IMG/VR virus record: IMGVR_UViG_3300037153_000087
Coordinates: 1-56,700 of that record
DNA from: a virus
Taxonomy: Duplodnaviria; Caudoviricetes
DNA length: 56,700 nt
Strand: one strand, 5' to 3'
Each line of letters starts with the position of its first letter. Positions within the stretch are counted from its first letter, which is position 1. Shown one piece after another: positions 3,371 through 35,295 of the stretch. The notes under the pieces were generated by a model. That model did no database searches and was not told the origin of the DNA. It was given only the letters and a program-made list of their open reading frames with translations. The position numbers and the translations under genes were made by a program.

Positions 3371-3755
3371 CCCCGTTGCTACGCGTAGCCTGGGCGTACG
3401 CGCCGTGACGAGGGTTCCAGGCCGCGAGGTTGATGTCGAGGATGTCGGTCAGGATCTCCTCGACGGTCGGCACGTGGGCCTTGTCCGCCTCGCGCACGTG
3501 AATAACGTGCGTCTCGGGTCGCCTGTCCGTGCCGATGTAGTTGGTGTACACCCGGAACTCAAGGTGCGCGTAGCTGAACCGGATCGTGTCCCCGAGCGGG
3601 CTGGCCCACTCGTCGTGTCGAATCGCCGTCCAGCTACGTCGCTCCAGCTCCGCCTTGACCTCTGCGATGCGCGTGACGTACTCGTCGATGCGCTGTCCCG
3701 TAATCATCTTCCCAGGGAAGCACGCCCAGGGTCTCCACACAAGACCCCTGGTCAC
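3348..3755 (-). CDS. Hypothetical protein
   Basis: GTGA-coupled to the upstream HTH gene. Confidence 0.55.
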   Translation of the reverse strand: MTRGLVWRPWACFPGKMITGQRIDEYVTRIAEVKAELERRSWTAIRHDEWASPLGDTIRFSYAHLEFRVYTNYIGTDRRPETHVIHVREADKAHVPTVEEILTDILDINLAAWNPRHGAYAQATRSNGVASKPQA

Positions 3756-3991
3756 GCGGGGACCACGTCAAGGAAAACGTTCGCTCGCAGGTACGCGCCG
3801 AACAACTCGGCATCGCTGGCCGCGTCGTTGAACGCCTTCATCGTCTCCAGGTCCTTGTCGAACTCGAACGCCTTCATGATCCGCTCGCGCAGGTCCACGC
3901 CAGGCCGACGTGCACCGCTCCTCAGACGGGAAGCCATCGACTCGGAGCAGCCCACGATCAACCCAAACTCTTCGTTAGTCATCTTGGTCAC
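3752..3991 (-). CDS. XRE-family helix-turn-helix protein
   Basis: TNEEFGLIVGCSESMASRLRSGARRP HTH pattern; GGAGG RBS. Confidence 0.8.
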   Translation of the reverse strand: MTKMTNEEFGLIVGCSESMASRLRSGARRPGVDLRERIMKAFEFDKDLETMKAFNDAASDAELFGAYLRANVFLDVVPA

Positions 3992-4026
3992 CTCCCGGTA
4001 TCTCCACCACTATCTCCTGGGTAAAA

Positions 4027-4056
4027 ATTCTATCACGAAGTGTGCCTCTCTGTCAA
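4027..4056 (-). promoter_or_regulatory. Class-2 promoter for the HTH gene
   Basis: TTGACA-N18-TAGAAT. Confidence 0.7.
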
Positions 4057-4104
4057 CCCCCGAGTAACCTTGCACCCGCCTTCACCGCGTGCTTTCCTGG
4101 AGGC

Positions 4105-4806
4105 ATGATGCATAAAGCGCACGTCCTCACGGGGGTTGCCGGAGTCACGACCTTCGCTGCCCTGGGCGACTTCACACCGACCGCGTTCGCCCTCGCCCTG
4201 ACTTCCGTTCCCGGCTTCACGCTCCTGCCCGACATCGACCACGCGCGTTCCATGGTCTCCTCCACTTACGGATTCCTCACGCGCGGGTTCTCCCTCCTCC
4301 TGGGTCACCGACGCGAGACGCACTCGTTCCCTGGAATCGCCGTGATCGGCCTCGCCACCTGGTTCGCCACGCTGTTCCTGGACAACATCGTCGCGCAGGT
4401 CTGGCTCGTCCTCCTCCTTACGCTCGGGTGGGCAGCGCTCCTGCGTACGGTCGGAATCAAGGGCTGGTTCGCCGACCTGCTGCCCGTGTCGGCTGCTGTG
4501 ATCGTGGTCTGTTACCGAGACGAGTGGATGGCGGCTGGTGGAGCCCCCTACCCCATCGAGTTCTTGCCCGTAGCCGTCGTCGTCGGCATGCTCCTTCACG
4601 TGGCTGGCGACTGCCTGACCAACTCGGGCTGCCCGCTGTGGTGGCCGTTCTCCAAGAAGCGAACCGCGTTCAGCTTCCGTCTGCGTCGCAAGGGCAAGAA
4701 GCGCTCGATCAAGACCAACTCGCGCTTCGAGCATCGCGTGGTCGTTCCCCTGCTCTGGCTCACGTCGATCGGCACGACTATATTGTGGGTTTCCGGTCTG
4801 GCATGA
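4105..4806 (+). CDS. Membrane-bound metal-dependent hydrolase (YdjM-like)
   Basis: M..H, LPDIDH, HR..THS, LH..GD.LT.SG.PL.WPF motifs; TM helices. Confidence 0.85.
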   Translation: MMHKAHVLTGVAGVTTFAALGDFTPTAFALALTSVPGFTLLPDIDHARSMVSSTYGFLTRGFSLLLGHRRETHSFPGIAVIGLATWFATLFLDNIVAQVWLVLLLTLGWAALLRTVGIKGWFADLLPVSAAVIVVCYRDEWMAAGGAPYPIEFLPVAVVVGMLLHVAGDCLTNSGCPLWWPFSKKRTAFSFRLRRKGKKRSIKTNSRFEHRVVVPLLWLTSIGTTILWVSGLA

Positions 4807-4860: not shown

Positions 4861-5259
4861 ATGGCCGTCATCATCAACAAGTACGCGGGTCGCTGCGACA
4901 ACTGCCAGAACCGCGTCGGCAAGGGTGAGGGCGTCGCCAAGCGCAAGGCTGGCAAGTGGATCGTCCTCTGCGCCAAGGACGCAGGCGAGACGCACGGCGC
5001 GCGGAACCCCTGGAAGCCCGCGCACAAGACCGCTGCTCTGGACTACGCCGAGACCCCGTACGAGGCGAGCCGCGAGCTGGCTCTGGTCGACCACGAGTAC
5101 GCGCACTCCGACGAGATGAGCGAGCCCTGCGAGTGCGGTGGGACGATGTGGTACAAGGCGACCGTGGGTGCGCCGATCTGCCCTGACTGCCGTCGCATGG
5201 TGGTCTACAAGTGGACCGGTGTCGGCACCGAGTTCACCCGCAGGATCGTGCAGCTCTGA
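4861..5259 (+). CDS. Hypothetical protein with Cys-rich zinc-ribbon motifs
   Basis: KYAGRCDNC, CECG...CPDC. Confidence 0.7.
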   Translation: MAVIINKYAGRCDNCQNRVGKGEGVAKRKAGKWIVLCAKDAGETHGARNPWKPAHKTAALDYAETPYEASRELALVDHEYAHSDEMSEPCECGGTMWYKATVGAPICPDCRRMVVYKWTGVGTEFTRRIVQL

Positions 5260-5305
5260 TCTTCCCCGAGGGGACTGGCCGAAAGGCTGGTCCCCTCCTC
5301 TGTGC

Positions 5306-5335
5306 TTGACACCCGGTCAACTCTCATGATAGAAT
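5306..5335 (+). promoter_or_regulatory. Class-2 promoter for purB
   Basis: TTGACA-N18-TAGAAT after a terminator-like hairpin (~5264-5298). Confidence 0.75.
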
Positions 5336-5354
5336 CCGCTCCCAGGAGGTGCTC

Positions 5355-6764
5355 ATGCTAGAGCGTTACACGTTGGAGCCCGTTGGCTCCTATTGGACCC
5401 GCGCTGCTCAATACGATCTGTGGCGCGAGGTCGAGATCTACGCTGCTAAGGTCAAGGGTGCGCCTGACGGCATCCTACGTGCGTTGGTCGACACCCCGGT
5501 TCCCGCAATCGAGGCGATCGAAGCCGAGGAGCGACTCGTGCGTCACGATGTGGTCGCGTTCCTGAACATGTGGCGTGAGAACATGTCGGTCGACGTCGCT
5601 GCCTGGGTCCACAAGGGTATGACCTCGTCGGACCTGGTCGACACCGCCAACGCGCTTCGGCTGGCAGCGGTCACGGACGAGATCCTCACCCAAGCGGGCA
5701 AGCTGGAGTACCTGCTGGCCAAGCACGCTATCCACCACTGGAAGACTCCGAGGGTAGCGAGAACCCACGGGCAGAACGCCCAGGCCAGTAGCTGGGGCTA
5801 TCGCGTGGCAGACTTCACGATAGCCCTGGAGCGCGTCATCAGCATACTTCGGTACGCCAGGGCAGACGCCTGCGTGGCCAAGATCTCAGGACCGGTCGGC
5901 GACTACCGAGATTCGAGTCTCGCGATGGAGGTCGCGTTCGGTCGCGACATGGGCCTCGAAGCCGCGTTCAGTGCGACCCAGGTCGTCAGTCGGGATCGGC
6001 TGGCTACCCTCATGTTCGCTCTGTCGCAGGTAGCGACCGTCATCGAAGCGATCGCCCTGGAGGTTCGACTCTCCTCGCATTCGCAGGTCGGCGAGCTGAG
6101 CGAGGGATTCGGCGAGCAGCAGGCAGGCTCGTCGGCCATGCCGCACAAACAGAACCCGATCATCAGCGAGCAGCTTACCGGCCTCGCCAAGATCGTTCGC
6201 GCCCAGGTGGTTCCGATCCAGGAGGGGGTGGCGCTCTGGCACGAGCGCGACATCTCGCATTCCTCTGTCGAGCGGATCGCCGTGCAGACGGCTACCGTCG
6301 TCACGCACTTCATGTTGGTTCGGTGCATCGAGCTGTTCCAGGGCCTGAACGTCCACACCGAGATCATGCAAGCCAACCTCGACTCTGCGCGCGACGCCAC
6401 CCTCTCCGCGAGAATCAAAGACCACCTGATTGAGGAGGGCCTGCACCCGAACACGGCGTGGGACGTCGTCCGCGAGGCTGCCTCGATCCCGCACCCCGAC
6501 CTGATCGCCAAGACCAATCAGGTCCTGCACCAGCACGGGTACGGCGTTCGGGTTCCCTACTTCAATGACGAGCCGACTCCTCACCATGAGCACGTGCTCA
6601 AGCACATGAACACGCTGCGTCGCAGGCACGAGCCGAGAACCGTCTATTTCGTCCCCCGGATGGCCGACCTCGACGGACCGACACAGGAGGAGCTGGCCAA
6701 GGGTATCAGCCTTGACGAGTTCCTGCGCGACATCCAGATGGGGGATGGCGATGGGGGGAACTGA
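5355..6764 (+). CDS. purB: Adenylosuccinate lyase (phage-encoded PurB)
   Basis: RHDVVAF, H.G.TSSD..DTA, RTHGQ, KISGPVG, GSSAMPHKQNP signature and WHERDISHSSVERI; AGGAGG RBS. Confidence 0.93.
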   Translation: MLERYTLEPVGSYWTRAAQYDLWREVEIYAAKVKGAPDGILRALVDTPVPAIEAIEAEERLVRHDVVAFLNMWRENMSVDVAAWVHKGMTSSDLVDTANALRLAAVTDEILTQAGKLEYLLAKHAIHHWKTPRVARTHGQNAQASSWGYRVADFTIALERVISILRYARADACVAKISGPVGDYRDSSLAMEVAFGRDMGLEAAFSATQVVSRDRLATLMFALSQVATVIEAIALEVRLSSHSQVGELSEGFGEQQAGSSAMPHKQNPIISEQLTGLAKIVRAQVVPIQEGVALWHERDISHSSVERIAVQTATVVTHFMLVRCIELFQGLNVHTEIMQANLDSARDATLSARIKDHLIEEGLHPNTAWDVVREAASIPHPDLIAKTNQVLHQHGYGVRVPYFNDEPTPHHEHVLKHMNTLRRRHEPRTVYFVPRMADLDGPTQEELAKGISLDEFLRDIQMGDGDGGN

Positions 6765-7095
6765 CGGACCGCGCAAGCTGGCCATGGAGTCGGCTGCTCT
6801 GCGCTACGGTCAGTTCGAGGCCGAGCGTCGGTTCGTGGGTGGCCCGTTGGACGGACAGGTTAAGGACCTCCCCCCCTCGCAAGACCGGTTCTACGTGGTG
6901 GACGTCGACCAGGCCATGGCCTATCTGTTCCCCGAGGGAACGGACCGTCCGACCGATTCCGGCCCACGATCGGGCACGTACGAGCTGTGGATGAACTACA
7001 GACGCGAGCGAGTCATGCGGTGGCTGGGCTGGGACGACGAGCGCGCCTACAACCTGTTCGTAGCCGACAACGCGTCTCCGGACGCCAACGATTAA
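6745..7095 (+). CDS. Hypothetical protein
   Basis: FVGGPLDG motif common in small phage proteins; start uncertain. Confidence 0.6.
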   Translation: MAMGGTDGPRKLAMESAALRYGQFEAERRFVGGPLDGQVKDLPPSQDRFYVVDVDQAMAYLFPEGTDRPTDSGPRSGTYELWMNYRRERVMRWLGWDDERAYNLFVADNASPDAND

Positions 7096-25992: not shown

Positions 25993-26038
25993 CGTAGTAG
26001 TGGGGGCGGAGAGCCCCCTAGGCGAGAGGATTCCTCCC

Positions 26039-26551: not shown

Positions 26552-28591
26552 GTGAGACTGCGTGACCTGCCGGACGGCTACCCGATCGAGGTGGACACCG
26601 AGACCTCAAATCTATACGTCGACGCTGGTGGCCGAATCGCGGCGGTCAGCTTCGCGTTCCGGGTGCCAGACGCCCAAGGCGAATCCGACCCAAGCCAGCC
26701 GCTGGTCTGGAAGGCGGTATCGTTCGACCAGGGCGTCGACCACCTCCCGCTCGGGGACAAGACCCTCAACGACCGGACGATCAAGCGTCTATCGAAGTGG
26801 CCCGACTGGGCACTGGACGAGGACGCCAGGAACCTCCCCCCTGAGAAGTACGTCGAGCTGACCAAGGAGTTCAGCCGACTGCGGATCTGCTGGCACAACG
26901 CCAAGTTCGACCTGTCGATGTTCAGGGCTGGCCTCCGAGGCGAGGAGGCTGCAACGGCGATCGACCTGGAGGACAACACCTACTGGGACACCCAACTGGC
27001 GCAGAATGTGATCGACCCGCGTTGGGGAGTCGCCCTCAAGCCGACCGCTGTCCGGCTGCACCTGGGTGCCGAGCTGGGCGTCAAGGAGGGCATGGAGGAC
27101 GACGAGGCCGAGGCCCTTAAGCCGTGGCTCGGACCGAAGTCGGGCAAGAACGCCGACCCCCGGTACGACCTGGTCCCCTGGTCGATCATGGGTCCCTACG
27201 CCAAGATGGACGCTGCCCTGACGATCCTGCTCCGTGAACACCAGTGGGAGCTGCTGGCCGAGCAGTACGCGTTCGTCATGCACCACATCTCCCGCGAGAC
27301 GGACCTCATGAAGGTTCTGTATCGCATGGAGGGGCGTGGCGTCGGCTTCGACGTGCCGTTGGCGATTCAGATGCAAGAGCTGATCGAGGAGGAGCGCAAG
27401 CGCACAGCCGCCACCCTCCCCTTCGAACCGACCCCCAACAAGGCGCGCGTCTACTTCTTCGGCGACCCCCCGGACGGGCTGGGCCACGACAAGTACGACG
27501 ACAAGCTGACCGAGAAGAAGCGCGAGCCCCAGGTCGACGACGAGGTCATCAGTCGGCTGGCAGCGGAGGAGTGGGAAGGTCGGCGCATCGCGCAGATCTA
27601 CCAGCGACACGAAGCCCTGAAGAGCGCCAACGCGAAGTGGTACGGAGCCTGGCCGTACATGGCTGGGCCTGACGGCAGGCTGCGTACGAACCACAAGCAG
27701 AATGGCACCGTTAGTGGTCGGCTGAGCGTCGAGCGGATCCAGCTCCAGGCGATCCCCCAGCCGTACCAGATGCCCAAGGTGGACGGGCTGGTCGGCGTGC
27801 GCGACCTGTTCATCGAGACTGAGAAATGCTCGTGCGGGTGTGGCGTCCTGGAGATGTGGGAGTTCGACGTAAGCCAGGCCGAGATTCGGATCGCGACGGC
27901 ACGAGCCCAATGCAGGCCGATGCTCGAAGGCTTCTACCGAGGCGACGACTCGCACAGCATCGCCTGCCGACTGATGTTCGGCGCGGTGTTCGACAAGGAC
28001 GGGTTCGGGGGCAACGAGGAGGCACACCCGGACTGGGACGAGTTCCGCCAGGTGTCGAAACGCTGCAACCTGGGCATTCTGTACGGCGCAGGCGTCAAGA
28101 TCATCCGTGAGCAGATCATGAAGTTCACGGGGGTCGTCTACCCGATGCGCCAGGTGGGGATCTGGGTCAACCAGTGGAACGAAGCGTTCCCCCAGATGGG
28201 CGAGCGGCTGGAGCTGATGAGCCGGATGGCCCAGCGCCAGGGGTTCGTCAAGCTGATCAACGGCAGGCAGCGCTGGTTCAGTCCGTACGAGGACCTGCAC
28301 AAGGCGTTCAACCAGGAGGTGCAGGGGTCGCTGGCCGAGGTCATGAAGGAGATCATGATCGAGGTCGAGAACGAGTTCCCGAACGCGCTGCTCCTCCAGA
28401 TTCACGACTCGATCATCCTGCGGCTGAGCCGCTGCCAGCTCGCAGCCGGAGCGTCCGACCGCGTGAGCAAGATTATGGCCACGCGATTCGAGGAGGCGTT
28501 CGTTAGCAGGTGGAAGGACAGCGGCAAGCTGGTCCGGGTGCCGTTCCGCTCGGACGCCAAGAGGTTCGGTCGCAAGGAGGCAGCGGCGTGA
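26552..28591 (+). CDS. Family A DNA polymerase with 3'-5' exonuclease (candidate DpoZ)
   Basis: Exo DTET, HNAKFD, YA..D; SGRLS; motif A DVSQAEIR; motif B R..SK..NLGILYG; motif C IHDS. Confidence 0.93.
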   Translation: MRLRDLPDGYPIEVDTETSNLYVDAGGRIAAVSFAFRVPDAQGESDPSQPLVWKAVSFDQGVDHLPLGDKTLNDRTIKRLSKWPDWALDEDARNLPPEKYVELTKEFSRLRICWHNAKFDLSMFRAGLRGEEAATAIDLEDNTYWDTQLAQNVIDPRWGVALKPTAVRLHLGAELGVKEGMEDDEAEALKPWLGPKSGKNADPRYDLVPWSIMGPYAKMDAALTILLREHQWELLAEQYAFVMHHISRETDLMKVLYRMEGRGVGFDVPLAIQMQELIEEERKRTAATLPFEPTPNKARVYFFGDPPDGLGHDKYDDKLTEKKREPQVDDEVISRLAAEEWEGRRIAQIYQRHEALKSANAKWYGAWPYMAGPDGRLRTNHKQNGTVSGRLSVERIQLQAIPQPYQMPKVDGLVGVRDLFIETEKCSCGCGVLEMWEFDVSQAEIRIATARAQCRPMLEGFYRGDDSHSIACRLMFGAVFDKDGFGGNEEAHPDWDEFRQVSKRCNLGILYGAGVKIIREQIMKFTGVVYPMRQVGIWVNQWNEAFPQMGERLELMSRMAQRQGFVKLINGRQRWFSPYEDLHKAFNQEVQGSLAEVMKEIMIEVENEFPNALLLQIHDSIILRLSRCQLAAGASDRVSKIMATRFEEAFVSRWKDSGKLVRVPFRSDAKRFGRKEAAA

Positions 28592-30381: not shown

Positions 30382-30629
30382 TGGAAGTTGGAGCCAAGGA
30401 CACGTTGGGTCGAGTGCTGAGGATCATCCGGAACCGTAAGGTCCTGGTCAGGAGCCAGCAGACTCACAGCATCGCGGTGTGCGAAACCGAAGGGTGCGGC
30501 TGGTCGCTGGAGGGCAAGAACGCGATGGGCGTCGGCAGCCAGCACGCAGCGTCGAAGTGCCACAAGGTGAACGTGCGGCGCGAGGTGCAGACTGAGTACG
30601 ACGGCGAGACGCCCAACGTCCGGGCTTGA
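30381..30629 (+). CDS. Hypothetical Cys/His protein
   Basis: C....CGW...H....H.V. Confidence 0.6.
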   Translation: MEVGAKDTLGRVLRIIRNRKVLVRSQQTHSIAVCETEGCGWSLEGKNAMGVGSQHAASKCHKVNVRREVQTEYDGETPNVRA

Positions 30630-30655
30630 CAGCCTGGCAGATCCTATGATAAGCT
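30626..30655 (+). promoter_or_regulatory. Class-2 promoter for the purZ operon
   Basis: TTGACAGCCTGGCAGATCCTATGA-TAAGCT. Confidence 0.75.
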
Positions 30656-30685: not shown

Positions 30686-31828
30686 ATGGGTGGTAAGATC
30701 AGCGTCGTCGTCGGCGGACAGTTCGGGTCGGAGGCCAAGGGCGCGGTTGCCGGGTTCCTCTCGTCCGACCGCAACTGGTGGACCCGTCCGGCTCGACAGA
30801 CGGTCTGCGTGAGGGTCGGTGGCCCGAACGCTGGACACACGGTCTACGGGAGCTGCCCGAGCGACTGCGACGAGGGCGGAACCCCGGCTCACGAGCTGGG
30901 TCACCCCTGGCGACTCCGCCAGATCCCGGTCGCTGCCGTCACCAACCCGGAGTCCCAGCTCCTCATCGCGGCTGGCTCCGAGGTGGACATGTCGGTCCTC
31001 CGGGAGGAGTGGCGTCAGCTCAACAGCGCGGGTTACCAGCTCAGGGGTCGGCTCAACATCGACTACAGCGCGACCCTGCTGGAGGAGCGGCACATCACGC
31101 AGGAGCAGGGCGACGGGCTCAACGGTAGGATCGGCTCGACGGCCAAGGGCATCGGAGCCGCGAGGGCAGACCGAATCTGGCGCAAGGCGAGCATCATGCG
31201 CAGCCAGTACGACGTCATGAGGGCGATGGGTATCCTGCTCGTCGACTCGACCACCATGCTGACGATGCGGCTCGAAGCGCAGAACCACGTGATCATCGAG
31301 GGCACCCAGGGCTACGGGCTGGGCCTGCACACCGAGTTCTATCCGCAGGTCACGAGCGGCAACTGCCGAGCCATCGACTTCCTGGCGCAGTGCGGCATCA
31401 GCCCCTGGTCGGCGATGGTGACCGACCTCGACGTGTGGGTGGTCGCCAGGACCTACCCGATCCGGGTCGCTGGCAACAGCGGTCCGCTGGCCGACGAGAC
31501 CTCGTGGGAAGAGCTGGGTCTGGAGCCCGAACAGACCACCGTCACCAAGAAGACTCGGCGAGTCGGCGGATGGGACGGCGAGCTGGTTCGACGCGCGGTG
31601 TGGGCGAACGGCGGAGGCTGGAACGACCATGTCAAGATCGCGCTGATGATGGCCGACTACAAGATCCCTGGGCTCAAGGGGATCCGCGACAGCAACGACA
31701 TCAACAACCAGGATTACGATGCTCTCCAGAAGCTGGTACGCGAGGTCGAGGGGCAGACCGACGCCCGTGTGGGCCTGGTCGGAACTGGCCCGACGTCCAT
31801 TCTCGATCTTCGCGGCTGGAACCTCTGA
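30686..31828 (+). CDS. purZ: N6-succino-2-amino-dAMP synthetase (PurZ/PurZ0-type PurA paralog)
   Basis: GGQFGSEAKG with Ser replacing the PurA catalytic Asp; GPNAGHT; GST.KG.G; EGTQG; PIRVAGNSGPL; TTVTKK.RRV; compact archaeal-type length. Confidence 0.88.
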   Translation: MGGKISVVVGGQFGSEAKGAVAGFLSSDRNWWTRPARQTVCVRVGGPNAGHTVYGSCPSDCDEGGTPAHELGHPWRLRQIPVAAVTNPESQLLIAAGSEVDMSVLREEWRQLNSAGYQLRGRLNIDYSATLLEERHITQEQGDGLNGRIGSTAKGIGAARADRIWRKASIMRSQYDVMRAMGILLVDSTTMLTMRLEAQNHVIIEGTQGYGLGLHTEFYPQVTSGNCRAIDFLAQCGISPWSAMVTDLDVWVVARTYPIRVAGNSGPLADETSWEELGLEPEQTTVTKKTRRVGGWDGELVRRAVWANGGGWNDHVKIALMMADYKIPGLKGIRDSNDINNQDYDALQKLVREVEGQTDARVGLVGTGPTSILDLRGWNL

Positions 31829-32366: not shown

Positions 32367-33260
32367 ATGATCGTGTACTTCGCTGAGCCGATCGACCAGG
32401 ACCAGGCCAATTACGTCGAGATCGAGTTCCGGACCACCATGCAGAACCACCTCCTGCGGACCGGTGCCAGCGTCTACCGTCCGGCAACCGCCTGGAACCT
32501 GGCGAGCATCGACCGTCACACGAGCGCGGTGGCCGAGAAGGTCAACCGAACCGCGCTGGCCGAGGCCGACCTCCTGGTCGCGCGCCTGCCCGAGGGGACC
32601 GCCAGCGTCGGCGTTCCGATGGAGATCGAGTACGCGACCCGCGTGCTGGGGATTCCCGCGATCGTGGTCGGCGTGGGAGGCGTGGCGCTCCAGGCCAACC
32701 CGATGGTCTGGCTGGTCGACGGGCGCAACATCGGCAAGTTCGACCGGATGTACGAGATGGTCGCACGCGAGAAGGCCAACGACGTCAAGCCGCTGTACCA
32801 CGTGGGCAGCCTCAACCCGAGGTCCTACCCTGGCGACGCGGGCATCGATCTGGTGGCCAACGCCGACACGGTCATCCCGGCTCACGGGACGGCGAGGGTC
32901 CCGACCGGTAACCACTTCCAGTTCCCTCAGGGAGTGTGGGGCTGGATCGTCGCGAGGTCGAGCACGTTCGAGACCTACGGCGTGCAGATCCTGCCGGGCA
33001 TCATCGACGAGGGTTACACGGGCGAGCTGTTCGCGAACGCGCTGAACGAGTCGGACCAGCCGAGGCTGATCAAGGCGGGTAGCCGACTCTGCCAGATCAT
33101 CCTGTTCGAGAACAAGACGGCGCAGTACGCGCCGATCCAGGTCGACAAGATCGAGGAGCGCGACCGAGGCAGCAACGGGTTCGGGTCGACCGGTGCCAAC
33201 GGTCATTTCCTGAGCAACGGTCCCGACTCGATCAAGGTCATGACTGGGGAAATCTCCTAA
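32367..33260 (+). CDS. Fusion of nucleoside 2-deoxyribosyltransferase/dNMP-glycosidase-like domain and trimeric dUTPase-like domain
   Basis: N-terminal VYFA.P...ADLLVA...SVG..MEI.YA; C-terminal DAGIDL, RSS, GIIDEGYTGE, R.CQ and RG.NGFGSTG. Confidence 0.85.
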   Translation: MIVYFAEPIDQDQANYVEIEFRTTMQNHLLRTGASVYRPATAWNLASIDRHTSAVAEKVNRTALAEADLLVARLPEGTASVGVPMEIEYATRVLGIPAIVVGVGGVALQANPMVWLVDGRNIGKFDRMYEMVAREKANDVKPLYHVGSLNPRSYPGDAGIDLVANADTVIPAHGTARVPTGNHFQFPQGVWGWIVARSSTFETYGVQILPGIIDEGYTGELFANALNESDQPRLIKAGSRLCQIILFENKTAQYAPIQVDKIEERDRGSNGFGSTGANGHFLSNGPDSIKVMTGEIS

Positions 33261-34492: not shown

Positions 34493-34554
34493 TTGACAAG
34501 GGGGCACGTGCCATGATTGAATAGTGGTACAAGGTTAAACAAAAGGAGCTCGAA
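34493..34554 (+). promoter_or_regulatory. Class-1-like promoter and RBS
   Basis: TTGACA-N18-TTGAAT; AAGGAGCTCGAA-ATG. Confidence 0.65.
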
Positions 34555-35295
34555 ATGCCGAAGTACGACGCCACCGACCGCCAGCTCTCCTTCATCGTGA
34601 GCCTGGCCTGCGAGCGCGGTTTCACCTTCGCGGACAACAAGCTGACCCGAGGCGAGACGGTCATCGACCTCGCCAAGCAGAGCAAGCGCGGAGCGTCGAA
34701 CATCATCGGCTGGATGAAGGACGAGCCCAAGCAGGCGACCGCTCCTCAGGCCCCCAAGCGCTACGCGACCGAAAAGCAGGTCAGCTACCTGGTGTCGCTG
34801 GCCGACCGCGCTGGCTGGGAAGTCGAGGACACCAAGGTCACCAAGCCCGAGGGCACCGAGGTCGAGCTGACCAAGCTGGCCGTCGAGGTAGCGTCGGAGC
34901 TGATCACCGAGCTGAAGAACGCCCCTCGCGCGAGCTACGCGGCCAAGAAGAACGCCAACGTCAAGATCACGTCGGACGGCATGTACCGGATGGACGGGGT
35001 CGTGTACAAGGTTCAGGTCGCCGTTCACGGATCGGGCTACCTCTACGCCAAGCGGCTGGTCATCGACACCGAGGCCGTGACCGACGAGAACGGCAAGATC
35101 GTCAAGTCGGGCAGCGGGCACTTCGAGCGCGACCCCCAGGCGATCCTCAAGCTGCGCGACGAGCACCGACTGACCGTGGCGGACGCGAAGGCGTTCGGCG
35201 ACCTCTACGGAATGTGCGTGAGGTGCGCTGCCACCCTCACCGACGAAGAGAGCATCGGTCGCGGGATGGGTCCCGTCTGCGCGGGCAAGATCTAA
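34555..35295 (+). CDS. DUF6011-domain protein with two AT.(K/R)Q repeats
   Basis: C-terminal C.RC...LTD.ES..RG.GPVC; ATDRQLSFI and ATEKQVSYL repeats. Confidence 0.8.
   Translation: MPKYDATDRQLSFIVSLACERGFTFADNKLTRGETVIDLAKQSKRGASNIIGWMKDEPKQATAPQAPKRYATEKQVSYLVSLADRAGWEVEDTKVTKPEGTEVELTKLAVEVASELITELKNAPRASYAAKKNANVKITSDGMYRMDGVVYKVQVAVHGSGYLYAKRLVIDTEAVTDENGKIVKSGSGHFERDPQAILKLRDEHRLTVADAKAFGDLYGMCVRCAATLTDEESIGRGMGPVCAGKI

Follow-up and report, generated by a model that had tools for sequence, protein, structure and literature searches.

We analysed a linear, metagenome-derived record of an uncultivated virus, with 56,700 bases (Duplodnaviria; Caudoviricetes; IMG/VR record IMGVR_UViG_3300037153_000087, with a CheckV completeness estimate of 79%; this whole stretch is hereafter called the window), which carries a gene for a PurB-like adenylosuccinate lyase at 5355-6764 (+; 469 amino acids (aa) plus stop; hereafter the window PurB) and a gene for a PurZ0-type synthetase on the same strand. 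The main finding is that this lyase belongs to a phage-only PurB clade and that, at the level of this clade, a comparison of genome sequences argues strongly for a linkage of purB to purZ0. We consider it probable, with some reserve, that the phage has in the window PurB a Z-branch lyase of its own, which would convert dSMP (N6-succino-2-amino-2'-deoxyadenylate) to 2-amino-2'-deoxyadenosine monophosphate (dZMP). In the proposed route PurZ0 would produce dSMP from dGMP and aspartate, as expected from its homology to characterised PurZ0; the phage PurB would then take fumarate off by beta-elimination (Ser259, His138, His64) to give dZMP, and cellular kinases would complete the route to the triphosphate dZTP. 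After its capture, the clade would have travelled with Z-genome phages of the PurZ0 type. The lyase step itself is known chemistry; if the phage PurB performs it, the actinophage PurZ0 branch itself supplies not one step towards dZMP but two successive ones.

The lyase and its synthetase partner

The window PurB matched Pfam Lyase_1 (PF00206) over residues 73-283 with 118.3 bits (cut-off 27), and its top family was NCBIfam purB (TIGR00928), ahead by 120 bits with scores of 288.9 and 288.7 bits that lie under the curated equivalog cut-off (see below). The closest solved structures were the adenylosuccinate lyases (ADSL) of T. maritima, B. anthracis, B. subtilis and S. aureus, which matched residues 1-378 with 209-232 bits, T. 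maritima being the top match at 232 bits. An AlphaFold model based on a 54-sequence alignment had a mean predicted local distance difference test score (pLDDT) of 89.6, with confident helices to about residue 425, and Foldseek superposed it onto B. anthracis PurB (2pfm, a 434-residue chain) over 440 columns with a target-normalised TM-score of 0.86. In the model, residues ~1-425 form the three-domain ADSL fold. Pfam ADSL_C (PF10397) was undetected in the window PurB, and no ADSL_C match is precomputed for the clade either. Loss or replacement of the C-terminal domain 3, which the missing match could suggest, was judged improbable because the model and the Foldseek alignment span the whole ADSL fold; judging from the model, the three-domain fold was probably kept while the sequence of domain 3 diverged. 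Residues ~430-469 (window 6640-6764) form an extra C-terminal tail of ~40-45 residues that is found in the subclade of the window PurB; it is modelled with low confidence, and its end is acidic and rich in Asp and Gly. Three relatives (P0002, P0007 and P0008) show a comparable pattern, first hydrophobic and then acidic, and the tail may be a docking peptide.

The active site was compared with that of S. aureus PurB, for which the available portion of the structural report (PMC2917274) gives His68, His141 and Ser262 as catalytic residues and Arg4, Tyr5, Arg67 (C=O), Asp69, Thr95, His141, Gln212, Asn276, Ser306 and Arg310 as AMP contacts. The window counterparts of Ser262, His141 and His68 are Ser259, His138 and His64, and the window PurB has R4, Y5, R63-H64-D65, T90-S91-S92, H138, Q209, S259-S260, K265, N267, E272, S303 and R307. 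S. aureus Thr95 corresponds to S92 (Ser in T. maritima too) and Asn276 to Gln273, a position at which T. maritima has Arg. The signature loop (G258-S259-S260-A-M-P-H-K265-Q-N267-P), H64 and H138 were invariant in 54/54 rows of an alignment of relatives (alignment A1), and H64, T90, S91, S92, D93, H138, Q209, S259, S260, K265, N267, E272 and S303 in all 49 phage-clade rows compared, while R307 was Arg in 48 of these and Lys in one. Given the intact catalytic and AMP-binding counterparts, 5355-6764 probably encodes a functional PurB-type lyase of the fumarase/aspartase superfamily. We confirmed in this respect an earlier note on this DNA, made from its letters alone, which had described a full-length PurB with intact motifs: the translation shows VRHDV, GMTSSD, ARTHGQ and GSSAMPHKQNP.

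The same note had placed a purZ gene in this phage about 25 kb from purB, and such a gene was found at 30686-31828 (+), 25.3 kb away from start to start. Its product, an N6-succino-2-amino-2'-deoxyadenylate synthetase of 380 aa, matched phrog_1211 (286.9 bits) and Pfam Adenylsucc_synt. Against the PDB it scored 273.5 bits to 7vf6, over double the value for any PurA, compared to 127 for an archaeal PurA, 103 for phiVC8 PurZ and 73 for S-2L PurZ. Since 7VF6 is the PurZ0 of Gordonia phage Archimedes according to the accessible part of a 2026 study (Nucleic Acids Research (NAR) 2026, PMC12884076), the window synthetase is, by its best structural match, of the PurZ0 type and not of the phiVC8 or S-2L type.

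A further gene at 32367-33260 (+) encodes a 297-aa protein with a dUTPase-fold C-terminal half (Pfam dUTPase, residues 149-276). PDB dUTPases matched residues 140-280 only, and the N-terminal ~140 aa are without an assigned domain; over 92-94% of its length, the protein aligned at 33% identity to the long proteins annotated 'deoxyuridine triphosphatase' in Galactica, Keanu and Arthrobacter phages. The fused DmtZ-DutZ class, characterised in Arthrobacter phage Wayne, converts dATP to adenine, as stated in the portion of PMC12884076 that was available. By analogy, the 297-aa protein, which is of the same length class, appears to be a putative dATP-clearing enzyme. A family-A polymerase is encoded at 26552-28591, and a primase-polymerase and a helicase also lie within 21-29 kb. 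The polymerase matched Taq and Klenow in the PDB with 44-53 bits, and a DpoZ entry was absent among its 23 matches.

Phylogeny and co-occurrence with purZ0

In a large protein collection, the best 42 matches of the window PurB, together with 12 further listed ones, were without Pfam ADSL_C, and their contigs did not exceed 89 kb. The matches from about rank 43 onwards were mostly 435-aa proteins with ADSL_C and 46-47% identity, some of them annotated as adenylosuccinate lyase in Mycobacteriales or Frankiales metagenome-assembled genomes (MAGs). The window PurB was 75% identical to a metagenomic phage-type PurB, compared to 46-47% for the nearest cellular PurBs. A FastTree phylogeny of 229 rows was built from the window PurB, 53 metagenomic rows, 14 rows for 435-aa proteins, 80 IMG/VR rows from which four shorter than 300 or 350 aa had been removed, Galactica, Ghobes and 79 cellular rows from GTDB species genomes. 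A branch with support 96 set 138 rows, including all 79 rows from cellular species genomes, apart from the remainder, and the window PurB, the Hiyaa group and IMG/VR phages of ~35 kb were on the other side.

A second tree of 93 rows, to which 15 PurBs from PurZ0-bearing records had been added, was computed with IQ-TREE in quick mode (LG+G4; a short search, with the Shimodaira-Hasegawa-like approximate likelihood-ratio test (SH-aLRT) and without bootstrap; midpoint root), and the program warned of long branches for Ghobes, L274 and L273. It contained a 50-row clade (SH-aLRT 96) made up of the window PurB, Galactica, Ghobes, the head-to-head group described below and all PurZ0-linked virus rows except L274, which formed a long branch amid cellular rows. 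The sister of this clade consisted of seven cellular actinobacterial rows, one of them from a 485-kb MAG contig, and the union of the two had support 100. The window PurB lay deep within the 50-row clade, which has long internal branches. The earlier note had named a PurB phylogeny as the means of telling a phage clade from a recent host capture, and both trees returned a phage-only clade, each time with support 96. On this phylogenetic evidence, the clade probably goes back to a single old capture whose source was an actinobacterium that had a short-type PurB. All ten rows from large virus records in the 93-row tree fell among cellular rows, suggesting that phages have also captured cell-like PurBs separately; very large IMG/VR records such as G034 (427 kb), G054 (335 kb), G071 (316 kb) and G079 (312 kb) combine cell-like PurBs with PurA- or PurZ-like genes. 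The cellular sister group is of the 435-aa short type and was found in other actinobacterial MAGs, whereas the solved Mycobacterium PurBs (9oo0, 9op0, 4nle) are of a longer type and matched the window PurB with 69-77 bits, compared to 232 for T. maritima. The type of the host PurB, long or short, could explain which Z phages need their own copy.

Co-occurrence of purB and purZ was surveyed in both directions. A scan of IMG/VR with alignment A1 gave 191 relatives of PurB (a single-protein scan gave 2 loci only), from which the best 80 were taken and L053 omitted, leaving 79 records. A phrog_1211 match was present in 28/49 and 14/30 of these (42/79 in all) and, among records at least 90% complete, in 10/10 and 5/6; phrog_1211 also matches cellular PurA, as it did in 14/14 control genomes, and outside the phage clade 'PurZ present' may therefore mean PurA. 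For the IMG/VR records that belong to the phage clade in the FastTree phylogeny, the match was found in 22/34, including 8/8 of those at least 90% complete, and the 12 clade records lacking it were 38-88% complete. PurZ genes from 12 of the 22 positive clade records scored 320-372 bits to the window PurZ0, compared to 256 for the PurZ0 of Ghobes. In the reverse direction, an alignment of 15 PurZ0 sequences gave 201 IMG/VR relatives, and the best 80 were searched with TIGR00928 at E <= 1e-10. A PurB was detected in 20/50 and 16/30 records (36/80) and, at a completeness of at least 90%, in 9/13 and 9/12 (18/25), where one of the 18 positives (G098) is a 58-bit partial match only and another (G132) has a PurB that the tree puts on the cellular side.

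In seven of the PurZ0-bearing records (G114, G117, G122, G124, G127, G131 and G134; loci L264-L270) purB and purZ0 were directly adjacent on opposite strands, head to head, with a gap of 102 bp in G122 according to the open reading frame (ORF) coordinates. The PurBs of these seven records form one subclade with support 100, and divergent promoters or a regulator site used by both genes could lie in the shared intergenic region. Overall, the co-occurrence survey that the earlier note had called for shows PurZ in all eight near-complete clade records, PurB in 18 of the 25 near-complete records of the reverse direction and seven adjacent pairs. We regard the linkage of purB to purZ0 at the level of the clade as strong on these gene counts.

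Relatives were also present in cultured phages. When 50,697 phage records were searched at the protein level, 36 had a PurB match, among them five from Streptomyces phages (Hiyaa (twice), Galactica, Keanu and Spocter; 46% identity) and six from Gordonia phages (Ghobes (twice), Frizzle, Sapo and Archimedes (twice); 33-37% identity), in which these genes are publicly annotated as 'PurB-like adenylosuccinate lyase' or 'adenylosuccinate lyase'. A phage PurB is thus not a singular feature of this phage, since GenBank records of the Hiyaa and Ghobes groups carry an annotated PurB-like lyase. Streptomyces and Gordonia phages provided 5 and 6 of 207 records with a PurZ/PurA match, the same numbers as their PurB matches, and both genes were seen directly in Galactica, Ghobes and Sapo.

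The Hiyaavirus PurB (Hiyaa, Galactica, Keanu and Spocter; known from annotation only) is 46% identical to the window PurB over residues 2-372, falls in the same phage-only clade, is similar in length (459 aa in Galactica, counted from where the alignment starts) and likewise has no ADSL_C detected by Pfam; the genomes of this group also have a PurZ0-type gene (50-52% identity) and a long dUTPase-like gene. In contrast to the window PurB, the Hiyaa-group proteins form a different subclade and the C-terminal 90 residues are left unaligned, the spacing of purB and purZ is 5 kb in Galactica compared to 24 kb in the window, and the genomes measure 81-83 kb compared to at least 56.7 kb here. Ghobes gene 36, which has relatives in Frizzle, Sapo and Archimedes, also belongs to the phage clade and keeps the catalytic residues; these phages are of a group with PurZ0 that figures in experiments on the synthesis of Z-DNA, as described in the accessible text of PMC12884076. 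The Ghobes protein differs from the window PurB in that the identity of 33-37% extends over residues 22-332 only, the Ghobes coding sequence is shorter (1134 bases) and its branch is very long. At residue 140, one of Ghobes and its partner L271 has Val and the other Gln.

Compared to the cellular short-type PurBs (T. maritima 1c3u, B. anthracis 2pfm and S. aureus 2x75), the window PurB shares the fold over ~440 columns, the catalytic residues and the AMP-contact counterparts, and presumably performs the same beta-elimination of fumarate. It differs from them in an identity of 31-33%, a score under the TIGR00928 cut-off, a domain 3 past Pfam detection, the C-terminal tail, a Gln140/Pro180 signature (see below) and its location in a viral genome with a linkage to purZ0. 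The pathway of phiVC8, S-2L and SH-Ab 15497 is similar in that PurZ produces a succinylated 2-amino-deoxyadenylate from which a PurB is expected to release dZMP; as far as the available text of the sources goes, the lyase is provided there by the host, as are the kinases of that pathway, whereas the phage here, like 18 of the 25 near-complete PurZ0-type records, encodes a PurB.

Proposed role and competing explanations

In the portions available to us of a 2025 metaGPA preprint, a 2025 Nature Communications paper and the NAR 2026 study of Ghobes and Wayne (PMC12884076), the step from dSMP to dZMP is assigned to host PurB or host enzymes. PMC12884076 uses neither 'PurB' nor 'lyase' in its main text, and the metaGPA preprint does not use 'lyase' there. 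The literature searched, which did not extend to supplements, to the Science papers of 2021 or to Tong et al. 2023, contained no mention of a phage-encoded PurB in a Z phage and no biochemical test of a clade member. As far as searched, the linkage of purB to purZ0 is not in print, and public genomes of Z phages already carry annotations of the gene family. The idea of a dedicated phage lyase, put forward in the earlier note, is supported in part: a phage-only clade tied to PurZ favours a dedicated enzyme, and the gene is not unique to this phage.

Several observations weigh against the window PurB being a lyase for the Z branch. The characterised Z phages rely on host PurB according to the partial sources cited above, so that a phage copy is not generally required, and no PurB match was obtained from Arthrobacter, Microbacterium or Vibrio phages (0 of the 36 PurB-matching records), which account for 161/207 of the PurZ/PurA matches (105, 18 and 38, respectively). 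Seven of the 25 near-complete PurZ0-type records were without a PurB, one of the 18 positives is the partial match of G098, and the phrog_1211 counts outside the clade may include cellular-type PurA. In the window itself, purB lies 24 kb from purZ0. The TIGR00928 score of 288.9 bits is under the curated equivalog cut-off of 326.2 and covers profile positions 1-386 of 436 only, and the missing ADSL_C match belongs here as well. PurB is a bifunctional enzyme, and the gene could equally serve the cleavage of 5-aminoimidazole-4-(N-succinylcarboxamide) ribonucleotide (SAICAR) towards IMP, GMP and dGMP. Finally, large virus records with cell-like PurBs and PurA-like genes indicate that a PurB can be captured for reasons other than Z.

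The best-surviving alternative goes one step further than a Z-branch lyase and holds that the clade is specialised, preferring dSMP over adenylosuccinate (SAMP) and SAICAR, with a PurB of the host that handles dSMP poorly or is of another structural type. We take this as a tentative possibility. Residues were compared first between 90 phage-type and 92 cellular rows and then between 49 clade and 33 cellular rows, with L278 (identical to L038) omitted. Gln140, two residues past the catalytic His138, was found in 46/49 clade rows and in 0/33 cellular rows, which have Val or Ile, and Pro180 in 48/49 clade rows compared to 3/33 cellular rows, which mostly have Ala. At residue 141, His follows Gly-Val/Ile in 32/33 cellular rows and is kept in only 8/49 clade rows; residue 257, directly before the signature loop, is Lys in 30/33 cellular rows and variable in the clade. 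In the larger comparison, several domain-3 positions conserved at 91-100% in cells were not conserved in the clade. The differences at residues 140, 141 and 180 and in domain 3 hint at specialisation, as does the different, longer type of the solved Mycobacterium PurBs. Pro180 takes the place of Ala in the Gly-Ala-Val-Gly loop, and in S. aureus PurB the carbonyl of this Ala holds Gln212, an N6 contact, according to the available section of PMC2917274. The same section describes the ribose 2'-OH as contacted by a main-chain carbonyl only; as the reported AMP-contact residues are also retained in the window PurB, its sequence forces no deoxy preference, and both points argue against specialisation. 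The three cellular Pro180 exceptions are all in the sister group (3/7 rows), which weakens the case for a clade-specific signature. Lyases of the E. coli and human types normally have Gln at the position that follows His-Gly, and Gln140 may represent a return to the superfamily consensus. The comparison offers Gln140 and Pro180 as leads for substrate tuning rather than as evidence.

An extension of this explanation, which we consider possible and on balance rather unlikely, is that PurZ0 and the clade PurB form a co-inherited two-enzyme module in most PurZ0 phages, arranged head to head in some of them, with a lyase that would have been retuned (Gln140, Pro180, relaxed domain 3) to the 2-amino-2'-deoxy substrate. 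If this were true, dZMP synthesis would be independent of host PurB and the published pathway would have to be corrected for the actinophage Z branch. Whether the phage PurB clade performs the lyase step, specialised or not, bears on the rebuilding of the Z-DNA pathway in other cells, on the recognition of Z phages in metagenomes and on how the module evolved and spread. The clade offers a natural collection of lyases that could be searched for discrimination of the 2-amino group, and Ghobes and Hiyaa-group phages are cultured. If the enzyme is an unspecialised PurB, a modest annotation gap is closed.

A second alternative, which seems to us unlikely, is that the gene is a general purine-supply helper and not a lyase of the Z branch: it would boost the conversion of SAICAR to 5-aminoimidazole-4-carboxamide ribonucleotide (AICAR) and with it the IMP/GMP/dGMP pool for PurZ0, and maybe AMP for ATP. 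The bifunctionality of cellular PurB (PMC2917274, in the part available), the ribonucleotide-binding residues retained in the window PurB, the cell-like PurBs found beside PurA-like genes in large virus records and the 24 kb that separate purB and purZ0 are all consistent with such a helper. However, no de novo purine gene other than purB was found among 31 window ORFs in a scan that was not exhaustive, and extra AMP or dAMP would run counter to the apparent dATP-clearing enzyme of the phage. The tie of the clade to PurZ0, with matches in 8/8 near-complete records and seven head-to-head pairs, fits consecutive steps better and leads us to prefer the Z-branch lyase over the helper. A passenger or recent host capture with no dedicated phage role is highly improbable: phages do acquire cellular PurBs, as the ten large-record rows among cellular rows illustrate, but the window PurB is far closer to a metagenomic phage-type PurB (75%) than to the nearest cellular ones (46-47%), lies deep in a phage clade with long internal branches and catalytic residues invariant throughout, and is preceded by a phage-type promoter.

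The purB locus, promoters and virus record

The ORF listing starts purB at a GTG (5349-6764, +). The ATG at 5355 is the better start because a Shine-Dalgarno sequence, AGGAGG at 5343-5348 (+; read from the sequence), ends six bases before it, and the protein-database copy (P0001, 469 aa) begins at this ATG as well. A 13-bp G+C-rich hairpin (5268-5297, +) follows the stop of the upstream ORF (5259) and precedes the promoter of purB; it folds as RNA with -27.4 kcal/mol (z = -4.0; 0/200 shuffles fold as well) and is terminator-like, but without a T tract. The promoter, TTGACA-N18-TAGAAT at 5306-5335 (+), agrees with the consensus at 11/12 positions and has a TG preceding the -10 hexamer. With the hairpin before it and a promoter of its own, purB is, on these sequence features, a separate transcription unit.

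The window has two exact copies of TTGACA-N18-TAGAAT (0.00 expected), one before purB and one at 4027-4056 (-), which points leftward and lies inside the overlap of the + ORFs 3405-4067 and 4042-4806. A looser pattern (TTGACA-N18-TAnnnT with one mismatch allowed) gave 15 matches compared to 2.6 expected, a number reached by 0/100 shuffles; its sites include 5306, 15038(-), 18453, 20337, 23929, 25963, 26467, 30626 and 34493. Such sites lie just upstream of purZ0 (TTGACA-N18-TAAGCT at 30626-30655, +), of polA (26467), of an ORF for a protein like single-stranded DNA-binding protein (SSB; 20337) and of the ORFs starting at 26000 and 34555, and many have an inner GnCA and an ATGATA block in common. 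One promoter class had been proposed for purB, purZ, polA, helicase and SSB; a single looser family does connect these genes, but the sequences are not identical, as the -10 hexamers vary (TAAGCT, TAGGAT), and the helicase site (23929) falls within the longest helicase ORF. The helicase may start further downstream than this ORF does. Because purB shares this promoter family with purZ0, polA and the SSB-like ORF, it is probably expressed together with replication and nucleotide genes.

The G+C content of the window is 61-65% along its whole length. Its terminase matched phages of Actinobacteria only, at ~33% identity (1375 records, led by Mycobacterium, Arthrobacter and Gordonia phages), and the host is therefore probably an actinobacterium. 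A megablast of window 5200-6900 against the phage collection gave zero matches, indicating that the phage has no close cultured relative in that collection. Among ten ORFs around purB, Pfam matched a YdjM-like membrane protein only, and nothing nucleotide-related. This YdjM-family inner-membrane protein (4042-4806, +; PF04307, 80 bits), of a family unusual in phages, is encoded two genes upstream of purB. The 132-aa ORF directly upstream of purB (4861-5259, +) is Pfam-negative, has several Cys-x-x-Cys pairs and may encode a zinc-ribbon protein. Finally, the ORF at 34555-35295 (+), which has the promoter of the same family at 34493, encodes a 246-aa protein with a DUF6011 motif at its end (44.6 bits) and a match to phrog_636 (104.8 bits).

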